A stretch of 64,000 nt of DNA from Escherichia coli (GCF_003790525.1 NZ_CP033635.1); one strand, 5' to 3'. Positions 8,943 to 36,199 are shown, counted from the stretch's first letter. Notes: generated by a model from the sequence alone, not told the origin. Made by a program: numbers and translations.

Positions 8943-9215
8943 ATGAATATTTATACCTTTGATTTTGATGAGATTGAGAGTCAGGAGGATTTTTATCGCG
9001 ACTTCAGCCAAGCCTTTGGTCTGGCGAAAGATAAGGTACGCGATCTCGACTCACTATGGGATGTGTTAATGAACGATGTCCTGCCGCTACCACTTGAGAT
9101 TGAATTTGTTCATCTGGGAGAGAAAACGCGTCGCCGTTTTGGCGCGTTAATATTGCTGTTTGATGAGGCAGAGGAAGAGCTGGAAGGGCATTTGCGTTTT
9201 AATGTTCGTCATTAG
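8943..9215 (+). CDS. yhcO: Barstar-like protein YhcO (90 aa)
   Basis: ORF translation [21 protein letters not shown]... recognised as YhcO. Confidence 0.88.
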
Positions 9216-9270
9216 CGCAAAAAAAAGCCCCCGAACCGGGGGCAATATCGTCGGACAAGACGATGAGGGT

Positions 9271-9534
9271 TTATTTGTACAGTTCAGCCGTAGCGTGCCA
9301 GGTGTCACCGCTACGAGCTTCCGTAATCTGGTAGGCCGTTGCGCCTTTCTCTTCTGCTTTTTTGTTCAGCATTTCACGCATATCCATTGGCGAAGACGCC
9401 ACACCACTTACGGATACGGTCCCGATTGCTTCACGATTTTGTGCTTGTGCAGCATCAATGGAGTCGGCAGCGAATGCACCGAAAGAGAGAACAGAAAGTA
9501 CGCTTAATGCAGCAACAGTGGTTTTGATTTTCAT
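9271..9534 (-). CDS. yhcN: Periplasmic stress-induced protein YhcN (87 aa, signal peptide; DUF1471 family)
   Basis: Internal ATG preceded by gaggtaaaaatc RBS; N-terminal signal peptide MKIKTTVAALSVLSVLSFGAFA. Confidence 0.88.
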   Translation of the reverse strand: MKIKTTVAALSVLSVLSFGAFAADSIDAAQAQNREAIGTVSVSGVASSPMDMREMLNKKAEEKGATAYQITEARSGDTWHATAELYK

Positions 9535-9898
9535 GATTTTTACCTCGACATAATCTTTTAGCTGGGCCTTTGTTTCGTGACCCATATCACAAAATCAAGT
9601 ATACACTAATTATTGAACTAATTAATACCACGCTAACTGTTTCAGTTGATACTAAGTGTTAAAAATGTGAATTTTAATAACAAAAAAGTATTAAAAACAC
9701 GGTTATTTATTATAAATACCATATTTTTCAATTAGATAATGGATTTTGCATAATGTGCTTTTTTTACCGTATGTATTCATTGTGTGAATGATATGTCGCA
9801 GTAAAACGCACTATTCGTTAAATTAATCGCAGGGGAAAGCAGGGGGTTGAGAGGGATAAGCAACATTTTCCCCGCCGCCAGAAGCGACGGGGCAGAGA

Positions 9899-10372
<474 letters not shown>

Positions 10373-10397
10373 TCACCCGATATGGTGGTTGATACAA

Positions 10398-10433
10398 CAT
10401 TATTGTGCATACAGATGAATTTTTATGCAAACA
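10398..10433 (-). promoter_or_regulatory. Putative ARG box operator(s) in the argR promoter (autoregulation)
   Basis: tgcatacagaTGAATttttATGCAaa resembles the ARG box consensus TGAAT-N4-ATTCA, immediately upstream of argR. Confidence 0.5.
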
Positions 10434-10728
10434 GTCAGCCCTGAAGAAGGCTGAAATAATGTTATGAAAGAGCGGGATTTTATCAAATTTCGTTATTGAG
10501 AAACATGCCTGCGTCACGGCATGCAAATTCTGCTTAAAAGTAAATTAATTGTTATCAAATTGATGTTGTTTTGGCTGAACGGTAGGGTATATTGTCACCA
10601 CCTGTTGGAATGTTGCGCTAATGCATAAGCGACTGTTAATTACGTAAGTTAGGTTCCTGATTACGGCAATTAAATGCATAAACGCTAAACTTGCGTGACT
10701 ACACATTCTTGAGATGTGGTCATTGTAA

Positions 10729-11742
<1,014 letters not shown>

Positions 11743-18835: not shown

Positions 18836-20203
18836 TTAATAAAATAGCGTGATAGTGGCAATCATATTCACCACGAAACCGACTGCCATGGGGATCGCTG
18901 TCCGCTTCACTACCGCAAAAGGCGAAACGCCTGCAATTCCTGACGTAACGACCACCACCGCAGTAATCGGCGAAACAGCGCGCGCTAGCGTCGTGGCAAA
19001 ATGCATTGGCATAATCATTACAACCGCTGGTACATGTAGTCCGGCTGCGATATTCGGAATAAGACTGGCAAATGACATAAACGGCGCATTGCCTGAGCCC
19101 ATCACAATGGCACAAATGGCAATGACCAGCGCCATAATAATCATCACGCCAATACCGCCCAGACCAGAATGCTCCGCCCCCCTGATAACCGCATCGACAG
19201 TGCCAATCGTCGTTAAGCCTTTCGCAAATATTTCACCCGCGACCACCAGCGTTACCACGTTGGCAAACTGCGTACCCATGCCGTCAAAAAACGCCTGCAC
19301 ATCGTCCATTGTTTCGCGCAAGTTATGCTTGCGGAAGAACTCAACAAACATCGTCACCGTCAAACTCAGTAACATCACCACCACCAGATGCAGTTCTGAC
19401 TGCATCAGCCCGACGTGGGCAAGGAACAGCGAGCCGAGCATCAGGATTAACGGCATCACCGGTAAAATGGCGTAATAGAGCGGCGGGACATTATCGAGAG
19501 CTTTTTGCTCTGCCTGTTCGTGATTGATATGTTTATCTTTTTTGTCGAAAGCGCGTTGCACGAAAAAGTGGGAGATCGCCACCGAGATAATGACGCAAGA
19601 GGCGACCGGAAGCTGGTAGTGGAAGAAGTAAGTGGCAATTTTCATTCCTGCGACCTGGGCAGCAAAAATGGAGTTCGTTTCCAGAATCCCCCACTCAATG
19701 GACATGGTGGTTGCGATAACCGCCACCGCAGAGAGACGACTTACTCCCAGACTCACCAGCGTCGGAAATAAGGTGACCATCAGCAACATACCCAGACCGG
19801 AGGCGCTGGTAATAAACTGCGCCATGATTTGGCCGATGACGTAAGTTGCCGACAGAATAATATACGGCGAGCGAATGAGTTTTAACGGGCGGCTTAACAA
19901 GCTCACCATCGCGCGACTTGCCCCTATGCGCTCCATATAGCGGGCATAACCGCCCACTGCCATAATCGACAGCCCCAATCCGGCAATGCGGTTGGACAGC
20001 ATGCGCAGGATTTCATTATAAATATCGACGATCAAGTAGCCGCTGCTTTTGGCGGGATCGAGCACACCACCGAACCCTAACCAGACACCGCACATCATCA
20101 GGAAGATACCTGCGGCAGCCAGCACCACCTGAGGTTTGTAGTTTTTCAGGATCAAATAGCCCATCGTAATTAATACGATGACAGATATAATTATGCCGAA
20201 CAT
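18836..20203 (-). CDS. dcuD: Putative C4-dicarboxylate transporter DcuD (455 aa, DcuC family)
   Basis: Polytopic membrane protein; ATG at 20203 ([11 protein letters not shown]...) fits the recalled DcuD N-terminus; the track ORF extends 6 codons further upstream. Confidence 0.88.
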
Positions 20204-20582
20204 TGTTGAACTCCGTGTCAAAAGAAAACGGTCAATCCCATAAACGGCAGATTGAAAACAATGATGTTATATTTTTTGCAAGGCTATTTATGGTGCGGAT
20301 GTCGTGTTTTTAATTGTAGATGAGGTGATTTTTCATTAAAAAATATGCGCTTATGATTATTTTGTAAGAACACATTCATAATATTCATAATACTTGTTAA
20401 TAGTCTTATGAATAATTCAATCGGGATGTTTTTATCTGCGTTACATTAATTTTTCGCAATAGTTAATTATTCAGTTAATTATAGTAATGATGAGGCACAA
20501 AGAGAAAACCCCGCCATTTCCCCCTACTTTCAATCCTGTGATAGGATGTCACTGATGATGTTAATCACACTGACCTTACAGA

Positions 20583-21374
20583 ATGGGCCTTATGAACGCA
20601 TTTGATTCGCAAACCGAAGATTCTTCACCTGTAATTGGCCGCAACTTACGCAGCCGCCCGCTGGCGCGTAAAAAACTCTCCGAAATGGTGGAAGAAGAGC
20701 TGGAACAGATGATCCGCCGTCGTGAATTTGGCGAAGGTGAACAATTACCGTCTGAACGCGAACTGATGGCGTTCTTTAACGTCGGGCGTCCTTCGGTGCG
20801 TGAAGCGCTGGCAGCGTTAAAACGCAAAGGTCTGGTGCAGATAAACAACGGCGAACGCGCTCGCGTCTCACGTCCTTCTGCGGACACCATCATCGGCGAG
20901 CTTTCCGGCATGGCGAAAGATTTCCTTTCTCATCCTGGCGGGATTGCCCATTTCGAACAATTACGTCTGTTCTTTGAATCCAGCCTGGTGCGCTATGCGG
21001 CTGAACACGCTACCGATGAGCAAATCGATTTGCTGGCAAAAGCACTGGAAATCAACAGTCAGTCGCTGGATAACAACGCGGCATTCATTCGTTCAGACGT
21101 TGATTTCCACCGCGTGCTGGCGGAGATCCCCGGTAACCCAATCTTCATGGCGATCCACGTTGCCCTGCTCGACTGGCTGATCGCCGCACGTCCAACCGTG
21201 GCTGATCAGGCTCTGCACGAGCATAACAACGTTAGCTATCAACAGCATATTGCGATCGTTGACGCGATCCGCCGCCACGATCCCGATGAAGCCGATCGCG
21301 CGTTGCAATCGCATCTCAACAGCGTCTCTGCTACCTGGCACGCCTTCGGTCAGACCACCAACAAAAAGAAATAA
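20583..21374 (+). CDS. nanR: GntR/FadR-family sialic acid regulon repressor NanR (263 aa)
   Basis: Full ORF; recognised as NanR; directly upstream of nanATEK. Confidence 0.95.
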
Positions 21375-24725: not shown

Positions 24726-26058
<1,333 letters not shown>

Positions 26059-26204
26059 ACGTATTCGCTCAGGCAGGGGGCGCTGGTTGGGAACTCAACG
26101 TTGGCATGGTTTCGCTGCTCTTGTGTAGATGTGTTGCAGTTATTTGCGACATTCCGCCGGAGTAGCGGAACTATGGAAAACGGCAATTGGCGCTCTTATC
26201 CCTT

Positions 26205-26236
26205 AGCTTTGTAAGGCTTAATTTTGGTAGAATGGG
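26205..26236 (+). promoter_or_regulatory. Candidate sigma70 promoter with extended -10 (TGgTAGAAT) for the AT-rich two-gene module
   Basis: TGGTAGAAT at 26225-26233 seen directly; the -35 is weak (TTGTAA or TTAGCT with non-ideal spacing). Confidence 0.35.
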
Positions 26237-26264
26237 GAATCGTTTAACGGAAAAAAACAATCAG

Positions 26265-26759
26265 ATGATTTCTTTTCTATCCGATGAATTTGAGGAATTT
26301 CCGCAGGGAGATTTTTTAAATCATCTCTATAGGTTTTCGGTAGACCATCATCATTTTATCGTGATATTTAGCCCTATTGATATTAGCGATGCGGAGTACC
26401 ATCAATACCGTAGCGAGGAAGTTGGATTTGAAATCCCAACTAATTGTTTTGATGTGAAATTTGATAGGCAAGAAAACTTTGATAGTGGTAACTTTTACAT
26501 GCCCCCCGCCGCAACTGAATGCTCGAGGCGCAGACGCTTTACTGATGAACTCGCAGAGGCGCTAGCAACGATTATTGAAAAGCATTACATCATTTATCAT
26601 GCCAGGGCTTATCTTGCCATCGCAGAGAATGACAAGTTGAAACGTTACTATGACCGGATTTTACACAATGCCCCGGCTAATGTAGCATATAGAGTAATCA
26701 AAGATGTTGGAGAGGAGGAACGAGGTTATGCCATACAAACCGAATGTTTCCGAACTTAA
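26265..26759 (+). CDS. Hypothetical acidic protein (~164 aa from ATG 26265; alternative starts 26232 or 26187), no recognised domain
   Basis: Single long ORF in an AT-rich (~40% GC by eye) segment; MISFLSDEFEEFPQGDFLNHLYRF...; no motif I recognise; start ambiguous, weak RBS. Confidence 0.6.
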   Translation: MISFLSDEFEEFPQGDFLNHLYRFSVDHHHFIVIFSPIDISDAEYHQYRSEEVGFEIPTNCFDVKFDRQENFDSGNFYMPPAATECSRRRRFTDELAEALATIIEKHYIIYHARAYLAIAENDKLKRYYDRILHNAPANVAYRVIKDVGEEERGYAIQTECFRT

Positions 26760-26874
26760 GAAAATGACTGTTGCAGAGCGCAAGAAAGAAGCCATGCGCC
26801 AGCTTAAAGCATCCTTTGAGCGCGCCAGCATTGAAGGGACTTTGCATAAACGCTCTGCAAAGTCTGTTGCGTAA
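26728..26874 (+). CDS. Hypothetical small basic protein (48 aa), overlaps the 3' end of the preceding ORF by 32 nt in another frame
   Basis: Strong RBS GAGGAGG 7-13 nt upstream of ATG 26728; MPYKPNVSELKKMTVAERKKEAMRQLKASFERASIEGTLHKRSAKSVA; below the ORF-track length cutoff, found by reading. Confidence 0.5.
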   Translation: MPYKPNVSELKKMTVAERKKEAMRQLKASFERASIEGTLHKRSAKSVA

Positions 26875-26888
26875 TGAAAGATTTCAAT

Positions 26889-26914
26889 AACCCGCTGCGG
26901 CGGGCCTTTTTTTG
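26889..26914. terminator. Rho-independent terminator 15 nt after the small ORF (possibly bidirectional, facing the convergent VWA gene)
   Basis: cccgctgcggcgggcctttttttg: GC stem plus T7 run. Confidence 0.75.
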
Positions 26915-27095
26915 CCCTCAGAAAATCCCCTCTGACCTGCCTCAGGGATTATATACAACCTTCAGTTAATTAGCTGCGCACCATACGCGGCCCGAGCCTT
27001 ATCGCCTTGTTCAAATTCGACAATTCGTCGGCCAATTTCCCCGAACGTCGCGGTGCTAAGTACCGTATCCGTCCGGGCGTATCCGGCCAGAATTT

Positions 27096-28265
27096 TCAGG
27101 CGGTTTCTCTTGCTGTCACTACGCCATTTTGCGCAGCCCACAGATTCACATCTTCCTTACGAATGGCGGCGGCCATCATGCCGGGGAATAAATCTGGGGT
27201 ACAGGCAAAGGAGGGAATACCCATGGCGGCGAGTTTTCCTGCCAGTGACCGGTCGTAAAACGGCGCACCTTCATCGCTTAAGGCCAGCAGGGTAACCACC
27301 TGTACGCCGGACTGAATCAACTCACTGGCGCGTTGCAACAGATTGCGTTCCACCCCGCCTTCGTAGAGGTCGGAAATCAGCACCAGAATGGTATTGCGCG
27401 GATCGCGAATCAAAGACTGGCAGTAGCCCACCGCGCGGTTGATGTCGGTGCCGCCACCCAGCTGTACGCCAAACAGCAGCTCTACCGGATCGTCGAGCTT
27501 CTCTGTCATATCAACGACTGCGGTGTCGAAAACCACCAGATGCGTTTTTACCGCCGGGAGCGATGCCATTACTGCGCCAAAAATACTGGAATAGACCACC
27601 GAGGAGGCCATCGACCCACTCTGGTCGATACATAAAATGATCTCCTTTTGCGTGCGTTGAGACTTGCGCCCGTAGCCGATCAGCGTTTCAGGAACAATAC
27701 TTTTATACTCTTCCTGCCAGTGGCGCAGGTTGGCGCGAATGGTGCGCTGCCAGTCAATTTCCGCGTGGCGCGGGCGACGATTACGTACCGCACGATTAAG
27801 AGCGCCGCTTACCGCGCTACGCATTGGCTCTTCAAGCTGTTTCATCAATTGCTCGACAACTTTACGCACCACAAGCCTGGCGGTTTCTTTGGTTTTGGCC
27901 GGAATTACGCCATTCAGCGACATCAGCGTGGAGACCAGATGAACATCAGGCTGGACGTTTGCCAGCATCTCCGGCTCCAGCAACATACTGTGCAAATTAA
28001 GACGTTCAAAGGCGTCTTTTTGCATCACCTGAACCACAGAAGAAGGGAAATACTGGCGAATATCACCCAGCCAGCGAGCGACTTTGGGTGACGATCCACC
28101 CGTGCCGCCGCGTAATCCATGTTTACCCTCTGGCTGATACAGCGCCGCCAGCGCGGCATCAATCGCGGACTCTCTGGCATCCAGCGCCACGTTACAGGCA
28201 TTGTCGGCATCTTCTCCAAGGATCAGACGCCAGCGGCGCAGCCGTTCCATTTCGTTACTCGACAT
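27096..28265 (-). CDS. von Willebrand factor A (VWA) domain protein with complete MIDAS motif (389 aa); fifth gene of novel operon
   Basis: DQSGSM (DxSxS), GGGTD and LISDLYEGG motifs seen in the translation; start overlaps the upstream gene's stop by 11 nt. Confidence 0.85.
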   Translation of the reverse strand: MSSNEMERLRRWRLILGEDADNACNVALDARESAIDAALAALYQPEGKHGLRGGTGGSSPKVARWLGDIRQYFPSSVVQVMQKDAFERLNLHSMLLEPEMLANVQPDVHLVSTLMSLNGVIPAKTKETARLVVRKVVEQLMKQLEEPMRSAVSGALNRAVRNRRPRHAEIDWQRTIRANLRHWQEEYKSIVPETLIGYGRKSQRTQKEIILCIDQSGSMASSVVYSSIFGAVMASLPAVKTHLVVFDTAVVDMTEKLDDPVELLFGVQLGGGTDINRAVGYCQSLIRDPRNTILVLISDLYEGGVERNLLQRASELIQSGVQVVTLLALSDEGAPFYDRSLAGKLAAMGIPSFACTPDLFPGMMAAAIRKEDVNLWAAQNGVVTARETA

Positions 28266-30504
28266 GATTTTCCCTTTCGTGTGGTGGCAAAGCCAGAATG
28301 CGGCGCAGTAGCGGCAGCATTAACGCGGCACGCTGTTCATCCCATATACCGCTGGTCTCTTCTTGCTGCGCGACACGCTCGCCCTGCGCGGCGCGTTCGC
28401 CTAACTGGCGGCGTTCCGGGCTGGAAAAACGGCCGAATGTCCGCCGCAGCATCGGCAGGATCCGGGTGAAGTGATTGTCGTTCAGGCCGCTTAGCCAGGC
28501 ATCGATCAACTGCCATAATTCGCTATTGTGCAGTAGCACCATCGCGCTGTCGTTGAGGAAACCTTCCGCCCATGCGGCACTTTCCGCCGGGGGATTGGCT
28601 GGCGATAGCGCCAGGTTCATCAGCGTGCTGATCCGTTCTGTCGTTAACGTTTGCAGATCAAACAACAGGCGCGTCGCCGTTCCGCGAAGCAGCGCGTGTG
28701 CGGTACTGCCCTCTGCCAGCACCATCAACGCCTGCAACCAGCCCGCCAATAGATCTTCGTTATCCAGCAACCGCAGCGCGGCGTGGGCGTCGATAACTTT
28801 TTCTCTCATACTGGCGGCGCTGTCGTCGTTGAGCGCCGAACAGGCTCCGGGTAGGGCGATGGCGGCGCGCGGGGCGAGGCTCATCAGTACCTGCATTACC
28901 ATACCAGAGTCGGTCTGGCGCACGTTGCCGTAGCGGACAATCGCCACCAGTGGTGCCAGGGCTTCCAGCAACTGTTCGATATTGCCCTGAGTGGCAGCCA
29001 GTGATTCCAGTGTATTGGCGATGGGGGCAATCGCGGTCTGTAAATCGGCCAGTAGCACCTGTTGGATAAGCTTTGCCAGTTCCGGCAGCGTGCTGGCGTA
29101 TTGCGCCCTCACAATGGCATAGCGGGAGCTGGCCTGCTCAATGCTGTTACCCCAACGGCTGGCGGTAATGATGTTGATTGCCAGTGCCGGTTCCCAGCGC
29201 AGCGACCAGACTTCGTGGAACGTCCCTTTGCTGTTATTTCCTTGTCCAGCCAGACGGCCCCAGGAAATGTCGAGTAAGGTCAGGCGATGCAGTAAATGGC
29301 TACGCGCCAGATCGCCGGGTTTGCGCAGATCAAGATCCAGCACTTTTTCGCTGGCTTCTGCCTTCAGGCGCAGCGTTTTTTGCTGTTGCGTAATGTCGCG
29401 TTGGAGCGGCACGACGGGCGTATCATCCGGTACGCTTCCCAGCGCGTCGCCGACAATTAACTTCTGGCGAATCATCTGCATTGGCGCGCTTTCGCCCATA
29501 CACACTACGGTTTGCAGCGCTTCGCAAAGTTCGTCAAGCCCCGGCTGCGGGTGATGGCGCATAATCGCCAGCGTCTGCGCCAGCCGCGCCGCTTCGATAA
29601 TGTGGGCGCTGGAACAGTCGAGATCGGCTTCGCGAAACAGCCTTGCCGCGCGTGACAGCCAGCCGATATCGCGGTGAGAAGCGCCCTGATAACGCCACAG
29701 ATGATCGTACCATTCCGGTGACACCACCCCTGCGCCATAACCGCTGGCGCGGCTTAACGCCTCGTAGCTCCAGGGCGTCCAGGCTGCCGCGACCTTGCAC
29801 TTCGGCAAATTTTTCAGCAGTTCGTTATCATTCTTTGCGGGCGGCAGGTTTTCCAGCGCCGGAACGTGCCACGCACCGCAGACTACCGCGATGCGCGAGA
29901 AGCCCTCTTTTTTCGCCTGACGTAGCGTCTTGCGCATATACGCTTCACGCAGTTGATCTCTGGCTGAGTTTCGGGCTTCGGGAGTTGCCTGGCGTAGGGC
30001 AATCATCGCCTCGCGAATCGCCTCGAACAGAGACAAATCATCTTCGCGTTCCTCTACTCTGTGGCTCCACCAGCTTTCCCCATCGGTGTAACCGGCGGCG
30101 CGGCCCAGCCAGTCCAGCGGATCGCCGTCGGGACTGGCTTCAACGGCATCATCGTCATCGCTCTCTTTTTCGTCATCAAGCGCGAACTGATGACTGATGG
30201 GCAAGTCCATAAAGCGCACGGCGATATTTTGCTCAAAACCATAGCGCAGCGCCTGCCATTCCGGGGAGAACGCCGCAAAGGGGTAAAACGCGGCGTGATG
30301 TGAGTCGTCCGGGGCATAAATCAGTAGCGCGACCGGCGGTTGCATCTGTTCATGCTGCATAAAAGGCAGGATGGATTCGCCGTCGGGCGGCCCTTCCACC
30401 AGCAGGCAGTCGGGCTGTAGCGTCTCCAGCGCCTTTCGCAGGCTGCGCGCGCAGCCAGGGCCATGGTGACGGATGCCAAACAAATGAACGGTTTGTTCAG
30501 TCAT
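28255..30504 (-). CDS. Large hypothetical protein (749 aa), no motif recognised; fourth gene of novel operon
   Basis: Uninterrupted 2.25-kb ORF; AAGG RBS in the 17-nt gap after the AAA+ gene; acidic stretch DDEKESDDDDAVEASPDGD; helical Leu/Ala-rich C-terminal half. Confidence 0.8.
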   Translation of the reverse strand: MTEQTVHLFGIRHHGPGCARSLRKALETLQPDCLLVEGPPDGESILPFMQHEQMQPPVALLIYAPDDSHHAAFYPFAAFSPEWQALRYGFEQNIAVRFMDLPISHQFALDDEKESDDDDAVEASPDGDPLDWLGRAAGYTDGESWWSHRVEEREDDLSLFEAIREAMIALRQATPEARNSARDQLREAYMRKTLRQAKKEGFSRIAVVCGAWHVPALENLPPAKNDNELLKNLPKCKVAAAWTPWSYEALSRASGYGAGVVSPEWYDHLWRYQGASHRDIGWLSRAARLFREADLDCSSAHIIEAARLAQTLAIMRHHPQPGLDELCEALQTVVCMGESAPMQMIRQKLIVGDALGSVPDDTPVVPLQRDITQQQKTLRLKAEASEKVLDLDLRKPGDLARSHLLHRLTLLDISWGRLAGQGNNSKGTFHEVWSLRWEPALAINIITASRWGNSIEQASSRYAIVRAQYASTLPELAKLIQQVLLADLQTAIAPIANTLESLAATQGNIEQLLEALAPLVAIVRYGNVRQTDSGMVMQVLMSLAPRAAIALPGACSALNDDSAASMREKVIDAHAALRLLDNEDLLAGWLQALMVLAEGSTAHALLRGTATRLLFDLQTLTTERISTLMNLALSPANPPAESAAWAEGFLNDSAMVLLHNSELWQLIDAWLSGLNDNHFTRILPMLRRTFGRFSSPERRQLGERAAQGERVAQQEETSGIWDEQRAALMLPLLRRILALPPHERENHVE

Positions 30505-30521
30505 AGTGGTTGCCTTGCTGA

Positions 30522-31616
30522 TTACACAATTTCGCGGCAGGCGCGATAGAGATCGTTCCAGTCGCTGCGCTCTTTGACTATAGTTTCCAGATATTCACGC
30601 CATACCACGTCGTCCTGCACGGGATCTTTTACCACCGCGCCGATAAGGCTTGCGGCGATATCCCGCGGATGTAGCACGCCGTCGCCAAAATGGCCCGCCA
30701 GCGCCATACCGTTGTTGATAACGGAGATCGCCTCCGCGGTGCTGAGAGTACTGGTTGGCGACTTAATTTTCGTTTTGCCGTCAACCGTCAGGCCGTTTCG
30801 CAGTTCGCGGAAGATTTGCACGACTCGCTGGATCTCTTTAAGCGCTGGCGGTTCGGCAGGAAGTGCCAGCGCCTGACCCAGTTCGGCGACGCGGCGAGTG
30901 ACAATGTTAATCTCTTCTTCTTCGCTGGCGGGTACGGGCAAAATGACCGTGTTGAAACGACGTTTAAGTGCGGAAGAAAGCTCGTTAACGCCTTTATCCC
31001 GGTTGTTGGCGGTGGCGATAACGTTAAAGCCGCGCGTCGCCTGGACCTCTTCATTCAGTTCGGGGATAGGCAGCGTTTTTTCCGACAGGATCGTGATCAG
31101 CGTGTCCTGAACATCGGCAGGAATACGCGTCAGCTCTTCTACGCGGGCAATCTGCCCGCGTGCCATCGCCCGCATCAATGGGCTTTCTACCAGCGCCGAA
31201 CGTGACGGACCTTTAGAGAGCAACTCCGCGTAGTTCCAGCCATAACGCATTTGTTCTTCACCGGTGCCTGCGGTGCCCTGAATAATTAACGTTGAGTCGC
31301 CGCTGATGGCAGCCGCCAGATGTTCAGAGACCCAGGATTTCGCAGTGCCGGGTACGCCATACAACAGCAGTGCGCGATCGGTTGCCAGCGTGGCAACGGC
31401 GGTTTCGATAATCCGCCTGTTGCCGATATATTTCGGCGTGACCTCAAAACCATTTTCCAGTTGCCCGCCTAACAGATAAGTAGCAACGGACCACGGAGAA
31501 ATAGCCCAGTTTTCCGGGCGCGGATGAGTATCGTTTTTTTGCAGCTCATCCAGTTCTTCTGCAAATTGTTGTTCGGCATGTCGGCGTAAAACGGCGGCAG
31601 TAGCGGTGGAAGTCAT
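30522..31616 (-). CDS. MoxR-like AAA+ ATPase (364 aa from ATG 31616); third gene of novel operon
   Basis: Walker A LLLYGVPGTAKS (GxPGxAKS, MoxR-type), Walker B-like IARVEELTRIPADVQ, sensor-1 NVIATANN, Arg finger LKRRF; ATG overlaps the upstream stop as ATGA. Confidence 0.85.
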   Translation of the reverse strand: MTSTATAAVLRRHAEQQFAEELDELQKNDTHPRPENWAISPWSVATYLLGGQLENGFEVTPKYIGNRRIIETAVATLATDRALLLYGVPGTAKSWVSEHLAAAISGDSTLIIQGTAGTGEEQMRYGWNYAELLSKGPSRSALVESPLMRAMARGQIARVEELTRIPADVQDTLITILSEKTLPIPELNEEVQATRGFNVIATANNRDKGVNELSSALKRRFNTVILPVPASEEEEINIVTRRVAELGQALALPAEPPALKEIQRVVQIFRELRNGLTVDGKTKIKSPTSTLSTAEAISVINNGMALAGHFGDGVLHPRDIAASLIGAVVKDPVQDDVVWREYLETIVKERSDWNDLYRACREIV

Positions 31617-33217
31617 AAAGTAGTTTCTCCGACAAAAAACGAATGAAGTTGAATTCGGTGCGCCAGCGTGGCGCTCAGGGCAGTAAAGGCTGCCTCGCAA
31701 TAAGGCGTTTGTTGTGCGTCATGCGGCCACTTGTCAATGACATCATTGAGGACTTCGGGGGCCAGCAGGCAGGCGAAATCACTCATCACATGGCGCAGGG
31801 CGTAGTCAAAGCGCGCGGAATCATGTTTCACCCAACGGTGCAGCTCCGTGACCATTTGCTGGCTCAGGCGCAGGCTAAAGAGCGACGCATCCAGCGGTAA
31901 CAGGGCGATGTAGCGTTGTAAATGTTCGCCGCCCATTACCGAGAACAGTAACGTCAACACTGGCTCGTGTTCTTCTACGGGCAGGCATTGCAGAAGCTCA
32001 AAGGCGTTAATCTTCACGCCAGCAGGGGAATGAATGCTTATTCCGACGGGGAGTAGGGCGAGGAATGCCTGCGCCCACTGTGGATTTTTTTCGCGCAGGA
32101 CGGCGTGATACCAGGCGCGCAGTAGCGCCTCCTGCCAGTCGGTTTTCCCGGCCCAGCGCAGCAGTTCAACGGGGGTAGCCTGCAGTTGCGTTTGCCACCA
32201 GTCGAGCGGAACCGCTGCAACTATCTGATACAGCCACCATGCGCGCTGGCCCAACTTTTCGCCTTTGGGCTTAGTTTCTTCCAGCGCATCGGCCTTCCAC
32301 TCTGGTAAGAACGCCTCCGGGGCATCAAGGGCGACGCGCAGCATTTTTTCTTTGCCGGATAAGCCTTTTAGCCTTTCAAGTAAGGTCTCAGGAGCGGGGG
32401 ATGAACTGAGCAACGGCGCTAACCGAGACTTCATGCGCGAGATCCAGGCGCTTTCCGGCAGACAACACAGTAACCGTGCCGCAGTTTGCCGCACCTCTTT
32501 GCTGCGATCGGATAATGTCTGTTCCAGAAAGGCTTCGTCGTGTTGGGAGATCCCCACTTCCAGCACAGCCAGCAGCTGTGCGCGTTCGCGGGCATCCAGC
32601 GAACTCATCTCCTGCGCCAGCCGATCGCGACCCTGTTCCGGGGCGCGAATGCGCATTTGCGTCAGATATTGCAGACGCTGTTCGGACGTGCCGTGCAGCC
32701 ACATTTCTTCATCCAGCGGAGCGTCAGTGGAGGCGAGAACATAGCCCCAATCGGCGTTGATTTGCGCCAGCCAGCACCCGCGAGCGCCCAGAACATTGGA
32801 CAGGATGCCGCGTAGAGATGGCTTTTGCGCTCCATAATTCAGCAATGCTGGTAACAGCAGGGGCGGAGGAAGAAGTTGACGACGGACCAATAGATCAAGC
32901 GCCGACCACAGCAACCGCGGCGGTCCTTCTGACAGCAGCAGATGCAGCAGTCCCGCAAAAGCCGGGTTGTTTATTGGCTCGGCATTTTCTTTATCGATTT
33001 CCGGCAGCGGTGCGGGGTCAATCGCCTGCGGCACCCAGCCAGCCAGATGGCAGAGCGCCAGAACGCCCGCCGAGCGCAGTAGCTGTTGCTCTGCGGATGT
33101 GTTATTCGCCAGTTCAGACAGTAACAGCCCAATCTCACTTTGCGACGCCGACGGTGTAAACGCTTTTTTGTCTGTGCCGAGTAGCGCTGTGCGGGTTAAA
33201 TTTTGCCATTCGTTCAT
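31613..33217 (-). CDS. Hypothetical alpha-helical Leu-rich protein (534 aa from ATG 33217; 541 aa if 33238); second gene of novel operon
   Basis: Long ORF; ATG at 33217 forms an ATGA overlap with the SWIM gene stop; Leu/Ala/Trp-rich repeat-like sequence; no catalytic motif recognised. Confidence 0.8.
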   Translation of the reverse strand: MNEWQNLTRTALLGTDKKAFTPSASQSEIGLLLSELANNTSAEQQLLRSAGVLALCHLAGWVPQAIDPAPLPEIDKENAEPINNPAFAGLLHLLLSEGPPRLLWSALDLLVRRQLLPPPLLLPALLNYGAQKPSLRGILSNVLGARGCWLAQINADWGYVLASTDAPLDEEMWLHGTSEQRLQYLTQMRIRAPEQGRDRLAQEMSSLDARERAQLLAVLEVGISQHDEAFLEQTLSDRSKEVRQTAARLLCCLPESAWISRMKSRLAPLLSSSPAPETLLERLKGLSGKEKMLRVALDAPEAFLPEWKADALEETKPKGEKLGQRAWWLYQIVAAVPLDWWQTQLQATPVELLRWAGKTDWQEALLRAWYHAVLREKNPQWAQAFLALLPVGISIHSPAGVKINAFELLQCLPVEEHEPVLTLLFSVMGGEHLQRYIALLPLDASLFSLRLSQQMVTELHRWVKHDSARFDYALRHVMSDFACLLAPEVLNDVIDKWPHDAQQTPYCEAAFTALSATLAHRIQLHSFFVGETTL

Positions 33218-34536
33218 TGTGCGCCTCCGGTTGCCCAAATGACGCTACCGGCAAGCCAGGCGCTACAGGGCGTCAGCTGCTGACCATCCCATTCCCCCAT
33301 TAGCATAAACGGCGCGCCGCCGCTGGCCGCCAGTAACCGCCAACCCTCGTCCGACGACAGGTGCGTCGGTAAGTGCTGGCCCTGTGTCGAGACGAATCGC
33401 CAGCCGCTCTCGTGCGGGTAAATCAATATTTCGCTTACTCGCAGCGGCAGAGGCCATTGCCAGGGATTCGCGCTAAGCCGCTGCGCCATGTCATGCAGCG
33501 CGTCCGGGAGGGGTAATTCTGCAAGCGGGAATCTTTCACCGCGGGTAAACGGCTCCACAACCCGCGCCCGTAGCGGTGATGCGCCAGGGAAAAAGGCAAG
33601 CGCGCCCTGGCAGACTTGCCCGGTGATAAAGTGCTGGGGAAAGTTTTTACTACCGTGTGAATAGTCCAGCAGTAGCGCGGTGCGGTGGCTCTTTTCTCCG
33701 TACAGCCAGACCCGGCGTCGCCACAGATTATTCCCTTCTTGCGCGCTTTGACCTAAGACCTGCCAGTTATCGAGGCAGGTTAATCCGTCAGTGACGTCGT
33801 GTTTATCCGGGGGTATTCCCAATGCCGCATGGAGATCGCTAAGTTGTGCCGGGGATAACATTTGTTGCTGGCGCCAGGCGTCAATAATCAGCTGTAGCTG
33901 CCCCAGTTCTTTGCACAGGCTCGATGGCCATACCTCGGCGGTAGTAAAATGAGTGGTCAGATTGTTCAGGCGAGCGGCAATTCCCGGTAGTTGGGCGTCG
34001 ACCATGCGGGCGGCGATCCCGGCAAAAGGCAACTGTTGTGCAGAGATCTGCGCCAGACCGTGGCGGATCAGGTCGTGCATCCACTGTTCGAGGAAATCCA
34101 GCCCCGCCGTCATTTTTTGGTTGCGTGCCGCTTCCCGTTTGGCGGCAGCCTGCGGGTCGGCAGCTTTTGCCTCAGCCTGCTCTTTCTTCTCTTCTTTGCG
34201 AACCGCCCGCTGCTGGCGCGAGGTTAGCCACTCGCTTACCCATTCCGGCGGCTCGCCAGCGGTGAAACTTGCGGTGTGTTGCACCTGGAGAAAAAGCAAC
34301 GCAAGGCTATGTTTACAGGGGAATTTACGGCTGGGGCAGGAACATTTACAGGCCAGATCCTGTCTGTCGATTCGTACCTGATAAGGGCGGGAGCCGCTAC
34401 CTTTACACTCTCCCCAGAAGGCAGCCTCGCTATATCCGAGCGTCGGCCATTTTGCGGGAGCAACCAGGCCACGAGCCGCTTTAACCGAGGCGTCATCGGG
34501 CGCCAGGGCTTGCACTGATTCAACGGTCAGTTCCAT
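33214..34536 (-). CDS. SWIM zinc-finger domain protein (440 aa); first gene of novel operon
   Basis: CxCxnCxH signature at residues 63-76 (ACKCSCPSRKFPCKHSLALLF); first ORF downstream of gltD on the same strand. Confidence 0.85.
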   Translation of the reverse strand: MELTVESVQALAPDDASVKAARGLVAPAKWPTLGYSEAAFWGECKGSGSRPYQVRIDRQDLACKCSCPSRKFPCKHSLALLFLQVQHTASFTAGEPPEWVSEWLTSRQQRAVRKEEKKEQAEAKAADPQAAAKREAARNQKMTAGLDFLEQWMHDLIRHGLAQISAQQLPFAGIAARMVDAQLPGIAARLNNLTTHFTTAEVWPSSLCKELGQLQLIIDAWRQQQMLSPAQLSDLHAALGIPPDKHDVTDGLTCLDNWQVLGQSAQEGNNLWRRRVWLYGEKSHRTALLLDYSHGSKNFPQHFITGQVCQGALAFFPGASPLRARVVEPFTRGERFPLAELPLPDALHDMAQRLSANPWQWPLPLRVSEILIYPHESGWRFVSTQGQHLPTHLSSDEGWRLLAASGGAPFMLMGEWDGQQLTPCSAWLAGSVIWATGGAQ

Positions 34537-34649
34537 TACAATTCTCTATTGGCGTGGGGAAATCGATGGGGTCAAGGAGGCGTTAAGCAAAGCAGGAGGA
34601 GACTGTTTTCCGTAACAGCGTATTGCGCGTCCATCGCAAATTTGTAGTG

Positions 34650-34679
34650 AGTATAGCGGGCGGTAAATTCAGGAAACAA
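34650..34679 (-). promoter_or_regulatory. Candidate sigma70 promoter for the five-gene operon (-35 TTGTTT, 18-bp spacer, -10 TATACT on minus strand)
   Basis: Hexamers read on the reverse complement ~115-140 nt upstream of the SWIM start codon; heuristic only. Confidence 0.3.
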
Positions 34680-34721
34680 TGGCGGATAGCGGAAAGTGTA
34701 GTTTTTCGGAAAAAGATAACT

Positions 34722-34760
34722 TTATCCCGTGTAACCCGTTTTAAGCGGGCTACACGGGAG
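34722..34760 (-). terminator. Hairpin downstream of gltD (candidate terminator or attenuator)
   Basis: Inverted repeat cccgtgtaacccg / cgggctacacggg 10-45 nt after the gltD stop; the trailing U-tract on the minus strand is interrupted. Confidence 0.4.
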
Positions 34761-34768
34761 GCTGCAAT

Positions 34769-36199
<1,431 letters not shown>

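Follow-up and report, generated by a model that had tools for sequence, protein, structure and literature searches.

Two accessory cassettes of probably independent origin in the gltD-nanQ variable region of Escherichia coli SMS-3-5

Between the core genes gltD and nanQ, the chromosome of Escherichia coli strain SMS-3-5 carries two adjacent gene cassettes of differing GC content, which we analysed within a 64-kb window (the whole stretch of DNA under study, corresponding to the reverse complement of NC_010498.1). In plus-strand order, the window presents nanR, nanA, nanT, nanE, nanK and nanQ, followed by two hypothetical genes, here called the AT-rich pair; next come an annotated 123-bp pseudogene fragment of yhcG (DUF1016), five minus-strand genes annotated as encoding VWA, DUF5682, ATP-binding, DUF5691 and SWIM proteins, here called the operon, and finally gltD and gltB (Table 1). 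On the left, homology to K-12 and strain N96 stops one base past the nanQ stop codon; on the right, homology to K-12 and to strains with an empty site restarts exactly at the gltD stop codon. Within these limits, the yhcG remnant separates the two cassettes.

Table 1. Features of the gltD-nanQ region, in window coordinates
Feature	Coordinates	Strand	Basis or remark	Amino-acid identity to the E. coli copy across hosts
nanQ	25594..26058	+	core gene, left boundary; K-12 and N96 homology stops at 26059	
AT-rich two-gene cassette	26060..26965	+	absent from K-12, N96 and all but 28 E. coli genomes	
Gene for 164-aa protein (predicted GNAT-like fold)	26265..26759	+	annotated from 26187 as 190 aa	
Gene for 48-aa basic peptide	26728..26874	+	overlaps upstream gene; conserved downstream partner (46-48 aa)	
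Intrinsic terminator-like hairpin, then T-run	26891..26912	+	end of two-gene unit	
yhcG remnant (DUF1016/PDDEXK nuclease)	26966..27091	-	~codons 22-68	
Five-gene cassette with its own upstream leader	27074..34768	-	junction comparison	
Gene 5, VWA_CoxE protein, 389 aa	27096..28265	-	Pfam E 2.7e-52; 38% identical to YehP	52-89%
Gene 4, DUF5682 protein, 749 aa	28255..30504	-	Pfam; 27% identical to YehM	37-76%
Gene 3, MoxR-type AAA+ ATPase (AAA_5)	30522..31616	-	PF07728 E 1e-38	62-94%
Gene 2, DUF5691 protein, 534 aa	31613..33217	-	Pfam	25-56%
Gene 1, SWIM protein, 440 aa	33214..34536	-	Pfam SWIM at residues 59-81	28-68%
Cassette-borne spacer/leader	34537..34768	-	hairpin and ~130-bp leader	
gltD	34769..36187	-	core gene, right boundary	

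The complete five-gene cassette, as found in N96, measures 7,743 bp; the SMS-3-5 copy has its terminal ~48 bp deleted, the terminator T-run included. The gene 1 product keeps an intact SWIM motif (CxCxnCxH, with C65, C67, C74 and H76 invariant) and has no known domain beyond this finger. Gene 3 encodes a MoxR ATPase with the Walker A sequence GVPGTAKS; its nearest solved relatives are midasin and NorQ, and its closest named relative among MoxR proteins is probably YehL, to which it is 41% identical over the full length in a pairwise comparison. In the Walker B region this ATPase and YehL (locus L004, 8597-9685) read VEELTR and FEEITR, respectively (hhhEE), the usual form being hhhDE. The MIDAS motif of gene 5 (DQSGS...T...D) is intact and aligns with that of YehP. 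For the DUF5682 protein of gene 4, a structural model suggests a TraB/ChaN-like N-terminal domain, a likeness at the level of fold only, joined to a C-terminal α-solenoid of ~450 residues; H13, H14, E37, E82, D100, E151, R186, E187 and H213 are invariant in the N-terminal domain. Sequence and profile searches of the PDB with the DUF5682, VWA and SWIM proteins returned nothing useful, and NCBIfam gave no informative matches. The cassette-borne spacer next to gltD holds a strong hairpin right after the gltD stop codon (−26.7 kcal/mol, z −5.1) and a ~130-bp leader that is partly conserved with Klebsiella huaxiensis; a weak promoter, TTGTTT-N18-TATACT, spotted by eye only, may also lie there.

The AT-rich cassette replaces the nanQ-yhcG spacer and the 3′ two thirds of yhcG. 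The start of its first gene is probably at 26265, and not at 26187 or 26205, since the homologues of its product measure 162-165 residues. These homologues form a tiny family (15 clusters in 5.8 billion proteins). Structure prediction points to a divergent GNAT fold for the 164-residue protein, which has no Pfam or NCBIfam match at E ≤ 0.1 and no PADLOC match.

Comparison of 5,426 complete E. coli genomes, from which all strain counts given here are drawn, separates the histories of the two cassettes. The operon is carried by 33 genomes (0.6%), always on the chromosome and always at the gltD-yhcG spacer; the AT-rich pair is carried by 28, all of them among the 33, and there takes the place of most of yhcG. 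The five operon carriers that lack the pair have yhcG in its place: N96 and 2017-02-2CC show the order nanQ, intact yhcG, operon, gltD, and 18KM2445 has a transposase and a yhcG truncated by an insertion sequence (IS) beside the operon. Because these five carriers keep yhcG intact or IS-truncated, the operon came first and the AT-rich pair later; on its arrival the AT-rich cassette would have displaced most of yhcG. Elsewhere, the distributions of the two cassettes are unrelated to each other.

The insertion point of the operon is precise and has been used more than once. The commonest state of the site is an empty gltD-yhcG spacer of 183 bp (3,140 genomes, 58%), and the gltF-yhcADEF fimbrial cassette of K-12 lies at this spacer in ~1,120-1,290 genomes. 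Junction mapping revealed that the operon cassette and the K-12 fimbrial cassette replace the identical 55 bp of the empty spacer (junction coordinates: locus L059, 10329-10383; L011, 4619 and 11699; L005, 5931 and 13673); the replaced 55 bp folds into the gltD terminator hairpin. The hairpin 3′ of gltD differs in every spacer allele, each allele supplying its own. Counting the empty site, the fimbrial cassette, the MoxR operon, an IS1 deletion and several states of yhcG, the region is a chromosomal variable spot with alternative cargoes between fixed core flanks. Three alleles with identical breakpoints in a 183-bp spacer define a reusable insertion point that should be of use for pangenome and hotspot studies.

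The region differs from a classical integrative island in having no annotated integrase, no tRNA gene in 18-42 kb and no flanking repeats, and cassettes are therefore presumably exchanged by homologous recombination in the flanks. This route is supported by two observations: synonymous divergence (dS) within E. coli is lower in the operon (0.01-0.08) than in gltBD (0.10-0.20), and strain 2014C-3075 carries a near-identical operon beside gltBD genes that differ at dS 0.10-0.13. Scanning 25.5-35.5 kb against Rfam yielded no RNA family.

We therefore favour, with a probability of about 80%, the reading that two unrelated cassettes, acquired at different times, lie in the gltD-nanQ variable region; its firm parts are the gene content, the rarity of the cassettes, their points of insertion, the order in which events took place and the similarities in fold. 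A reading made earlier from the sequence alone had proposed independent origins stacked at one hotspot on the ground of differing composition. That proposal is borne out, and it is the comparative evidence, rather than composition, that decides it.

The yhcG remnant has a history of its own. SMS-3-5 lost the first ~22 codons of yhcG, and what is left is only 74-79% identical to yhcG of N96, K-12 and an empty-site strain; the operon beside it is 97-99% identical to the N96 operon. We rejected a simple derivation of the remnant from an N96-like yhcG in view of this gap (74% vs. 97-99%).

We computed composition for each of the 62 annotated genes in the window, taking the 64-kb window (52.4% GC) as a proxy for the whole SMS-3-5 genome; pooled core coding sequences have 52.9% GC, and 57.2% at third codon positions (GC3). 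The sequence-only reading had estimated the plus-strand pair at about 40% GC, and this estimate holds: the pair (26187-26874) has 41.7% GC, and its main gene, with 40.3% GC and 37.7% GC3, is the minimum among the 62 genes on both counts (z = −3.9 and −3.2, respectively). Only 1.8% of 688-bp windows are equally AT-rich. The main gene has a codon adaptation index (CAI) of 0.20, tied with the lowest core gene; CAI values, computed here with Sharp and Li weights, are approximate. Further stretches of low GC content (~44%) occur at 9001-11000 (yhcO/yhcN/argR) and 20001-21000 (the dcuC-nanR spacer), and no 688-bp window in the sequence has less GC than the one starting at 20001 (39.4%).

The operon (27096-34536) had been called modestly GC-rich, and it is: its 57.7% GC (65.2, 44.9 and 62.9% at the first, second and third codon positions) exceeds that of every non-overlapping 7.4-kb window (maximum 55.4%). 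However, the anomaly is weaker than supposed. In gltBD and nanTEK, the core genes immediately on either side, GC is 56.6% and GC3 63.1%, and the GC3 of the operon is indistinguishable from theirs; and the long antisense open reading frames that had been noticed over the operon are present there but occur over gltBD too. Whether the statistics of the operon are distinguishable from those of flanking core genes thus has a divided answer: GC3, the Karlin codon-bias distance (0.26-0.30 for each operon gene, within the core distribution of 0.264 ± 0.06) and the correlation of normalised tetranucleotide z-scores (r = 0.763, against 0.741 ± 0.038 in leave-out controls) are host-like, whereas only three measures separate the operon from its flanks—the share of rare codons (5.6%, vs. 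2.4% in core genes and 0.8% in gltBD), CAI (0.26-0.34, vs. 0.46-0.49 in gltBD) and raw tetranucleotide frequencies (L1 distance 0.246, vs. a maximum of 0.147 among 163 control windows). The difference in CAI implies that the GC3 of gltBD reflects an expression-linked bias and that of the operon does not. In 15 of 17 other hosts the homologous cassettes are likewise GC-richer than their own flanks, and in the E. coli operon the first and second codon positions are raised as well as the third; the GC signal is therefore partly intrinsic to the encoded proteins. G-C strand skew is unremarkable here, the “skew” of the sequence-only reading referring to GC content. The compositional observation is in itself routine: an accessory region at a polymorphic site, with an ordinary island layout.

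Outside E. coli the operon is both widespread and stable in its order. In a scan with one genome per species, the five genes are collinear in ~30 species representatives from at least eight phyla, with hosts in Chromatiales, Pseudomonas, Burkholderiales, Desulfovibrionaceae, Verrucomicrobiota, Bacteroidales, Chloroflexota, Planctomycetota, Armatimonadota, Acidobacteriota, Melainabacteria and Actinomycetota. No conserved sixth gene accompanies the 28 homologous cassettes whose surroundings we compared. Grouped at 50% identity, DUF5682 proteins fall into 4,447 representative clusters. Purifying selection acts on all five genes (ratio of nonsynonymous to synonymous divergence, dN/dS, 0-0.42), and the DUF5691 gene evolves fastest, both across phyla (Table 1) and inside E. 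coli, where it is an allelic hot spot with 7-11% divergence per 300 bp and sharp edges at the gene ends, its neighbours showing 0-4%. The N96 copy of this gene is a mosaic that includes a near-identical patch.

The closest relative of the operon in K-12 is the yehLMPQ cluster. They share the gene order MoxR ATPase (AAA_5), DUF5682 protein, VWA_CoxE protein (41, 27 and 38% identity, respectively), and each has a protein with an N-terminal SWIM finger; both clusters are uncharacterised. They differ in several respects: the SWIM gene comes first in the operon and the YehQ gene last in its cluster, and the similarity of their products is limited to the finger (hhalign probability 0.4%); the operon has an additional DUF5691 gene that lacks a K-12 counterpart and has no DUF4132 (YehI) neighbour; and yehLMPQ is near-core (5,209 of 5,426 genomes, 96%), whereas the operon is present in 33 of the same 5,426 genomes. 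Judged by sequence comparison, the operon is a rare, divergent and distant paralogue of yehLMPQ. In the Snider and Houry classification, as cited in PMC3893208, YehL represents a subfamily of the MoxR AAA+ ATPases. Given that yehLMPQ is near-core, SMS-3-5-like strains most likely carry the operon as a second, divergent system beside it. No function has been published for the five-gene cassette, collinear across at least eight phyla and under purifying selection, nor for its paralogue, which is among the remaining uncharacterised conserved operons of K-12.

Every biochemical activity and biological role that we propose for the two cassettes is one that we infer. Pairs of MoxR and VWA proteins carry out ATP-driven remodelling or metal insertion (PMC3893208, PMC9976466, PMC13036017). 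The operon resembles NorQ/NorD, CoxD/CoxE and RavA/ViaA in combining an AAA_5 ATPase with a VWA/MIDAS partner, and its proteins are related to NorQ, midasin and VWA_CoxE; those systems, however, adjoin the genes of their client enzymes, whereas the operon has no conserved neighbour at 28 loci and includes three extra dedicated proteins. By analogy, a MoxR hexamer with its VWA (MIDAS) partner would act as an ATP-driven gated remodelling motor; the fast-evolving SWIM and DUF5691 proteins may serve as specificity or sensor subunits; and the DUF5682 protein may be a scaffold, with a TraB/ChaN/erythromycin-esterase-like domain that would serve either for binding a metal or ligand or for hydrolysing a substrate. 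The predicted N-terminal domain of DUF5682 appears to share the α/β fold of the TIKI superfamily (TraB/PrgY/GumN, ChaN and erythromycin esterase), from which it differs in being fused to the ~450-residue α-solenoid and coupled to a MoxR-VWA pair. As the cassette contains no client gene, client recognition and catalysis most likely reside in the three cassette-specific proteins. Together the five proteins could form an autonomous machine, either with a role in conflict or stress or for the maturation of an endogenous complex. Concrete handles for experiments are offered by DUF5682, with its predicted TraB/ChaN-like fold, and by the hypervariable alleles of DUF5691.

It is possible, though we regard it as distinctly the less probable option, that the cassette works against phages or plasmids as a conflict system: the SWIM and DUF5691 proteins would sense the invader, the threshold would be set by the MoxR-VWA pair, and DUF5682 would act as effector through its TraB/TIKI-like domain. 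The self-contained build of the unit, which carries no client genes, its patchy spread across phyla and position at a variable chromosomal spot, the strong conservation of the motor subunits beside fast-evolving SWIM and DUF5691 proteins, and the sharply bounded divergence of DUF5691 alleles in E. coli all agree with such a role. Its logic also resembles that of the MoxR-vWA ternary conflict systems (PMC7159879), which likewise join a MoxR-vWA core to cassette-specific components and are patchy and horizontally spread. The third component of those systems is a VMAP, an inactive STAND, an FtsH or a β-propeller-fused vWA protein, and SWIM and Yeh proteins go unmentioned in that work (Kaur, Burroughs, Iyer and Aravind 2020, PMC7159879). 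The operon, however, has no VMAP, iSTAND, FtsH or β-propeller component, and its scores for the corresponding Pfam models stay below threshold (bpMoxR, 21.6 vs. 27 bits; nSTAND6, 17 vs. 27.7). Further points count against a conflict role: the cassette has no PADLOC match, none of its products is recognisable as a nuclease or toxin, dN/dS stays under 1 throughout, the neighbourhoods that were sampled do not form defence islands, and its paralogue yehLMPQ is near-core, which is unusual for defence genes. More speculative still is the notion that the cassette represents an unrecognised mobile class of MoxR-VWA-gated conflict systems, in which a DUF5691/SWIM sensor would license a TraB/TIKI-like hydrolase and of which yehLMPQ would be a domesticated relative.

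The AT-rich pair, a protein with a predicted GNAT fold together with a peptide, is an orphan cassette found on chromosomes as well as plasmids, among which it moves. The sites at which it is conserved are unrelated: the interval from cstA to the ent genes in Kluyvera, a position beside crp in Morganella, an IncFII-type contig on which parA and ardC flank it, and seven plasmids, including a Yersinia plasmid. On pKGB1a (L061) and the Yersinia plasmid (L062), the cassette lies near pifC, a P-loop NTPase, DUF4238 and DUF4145 genes and an IS3 element, surroundings that are accessory regions with a flavour of exclusion or defence. The cassette travels as one unit among the chromosomes and plasmids of enterobacteria, and it is most likely a small selfish, addiction-type or plasmid-accessory module.

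A narrower reading of the pair, which we consider tentative, is that it forms a GNAT-type toxin-antitoxin system in which the larger protein would acetylate a component of translation and the 48-residue peptide would neutralise it. The modelled GNAT fold, the overlapping genes with a common terminator, and the strict conservation of an AT-rich pair at unrelated chromosomal sites and on plasmids near parA, ardC and pifC would suit such a system. The known GNAT toxin-antitoxin systems (TacAT, AtaRT, KacAT) have an upstream antitoxin of the RHH/DUF1778 type, ~90 residues long. In the AT-rich pair, by contrast, the partner is a downstream 48-residue peptide with no detectable domain, and Pfam and PADLOC searches gave no match. 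The modelled fold is that of the GNAT acyl-CoA N-acyltransferases, but the 164-residue protein matches no Pfam GNAT model and its family is tiny.

Several points weigh against the account of two unrelated cassettes and of the proteins that they encode. GC3 and codon-usage distance are host-like, and composition alone is no proof that the operon is foreign. Our literature search found no experiment or paper on DUF5682, DUF5691 or the cassette, and a comparison with PADLOC-DB v2 gave no match, with only a sub-significant P-loop similarity to IetA (E ~1e-3), so that known defence models lend no support to a defence role. The link of DUF5682 to TraB/ChaN is at fold level only: there is no Pfam TraB match at E ≤ 10 and no PDB profile match, and a Foldseek search of the PDB with the whole DUF5682 model gave no hit at E ≤ 0.001. 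The GNAT assignment comes from a medium-confidence model of a protein that has no Pfam match. Finally, K. huaxiensis carries the operon in the same interval at a divergence within the range of flanking orthologues, which leaves some room for an ancient vertical presence.

That last point deserves closer attention, as the K. huaxiensis operon is the closest copy outside E. coli (76% amino-acid identity in DUF5682) and occupies the gltD-nanQ interval there too, with its orientation unchanged. If the operon were ancestral to Enterobacteriaceae at this place and lost from most E. coli, its GC content would simply be that of a GC-rich neighbourhood; the nucleotide identity between E. coli and Klebsiella (67-83%, against 67-85% for flanking orthologues) and a GC3 equal to that of gltBD and nanTEK fit this history. 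The position of the copies does not: in K. huaxiensis a yhcG pseudogene (L006, 5342-5679; two fragments, 78-80% amino-acid identity) lies between gltD and the operon, which is the opposite side compared with E. coli, and Superficieibacter electus and a related metagenomic contig carry the operon between ygjQ and ygjR. Moreover, the 183-bp spacer is intact and has a terminator hairpin of its own in 58% of E. coli genomes, the operon is carried by only 0.6% of E. coli and few enterobacterial species, its dS within E. coli is below that of the flanks, and MoxR proteins with 62-94% identity occur across phyla. We consider ancestral presence improbable, and separate acquisition of the operon remains the preferred reading.

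Least probable of all, and very unlikely in our estimate, is that a single event brought in both modules as one island whose internal contrast in composition came from a mosaic donor element, for although the pair in E. coli is always adjacent to an operon (28 of 28), five operon carriers have yhcG instead of the pair, each module occurs elsewhere without the other, and a yhcG remnant lies between them.

Some individual carriers of the operon depart from the general pattern. In E. coli EC17CM2 (L014, 9427-10224) and e1-39, the MoxR gene has lost 297 bp in frame and encodes 265 residues in place of 364, which suggests that the ATPase is dispensable or decaying in this lineage. In 18KM2445, the MoxR gene contains a 300-bp patch with 24 differences (L056, the equivalent of 30696-30995) and has a gene-wide dS of 0.20, the rest of the operon being near-identical; this patch is probably a separate recombination import. 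In Alistipes putredinis, Bacteroides sp. 43_108 and B. gallinarum (L036, L037 and L038), all five genes have the same tblastn coordinates and identities, and with 56% GC the cassette stands out from its hosts (45-47%), an indication that it was transferred recently among Bacteroidales.

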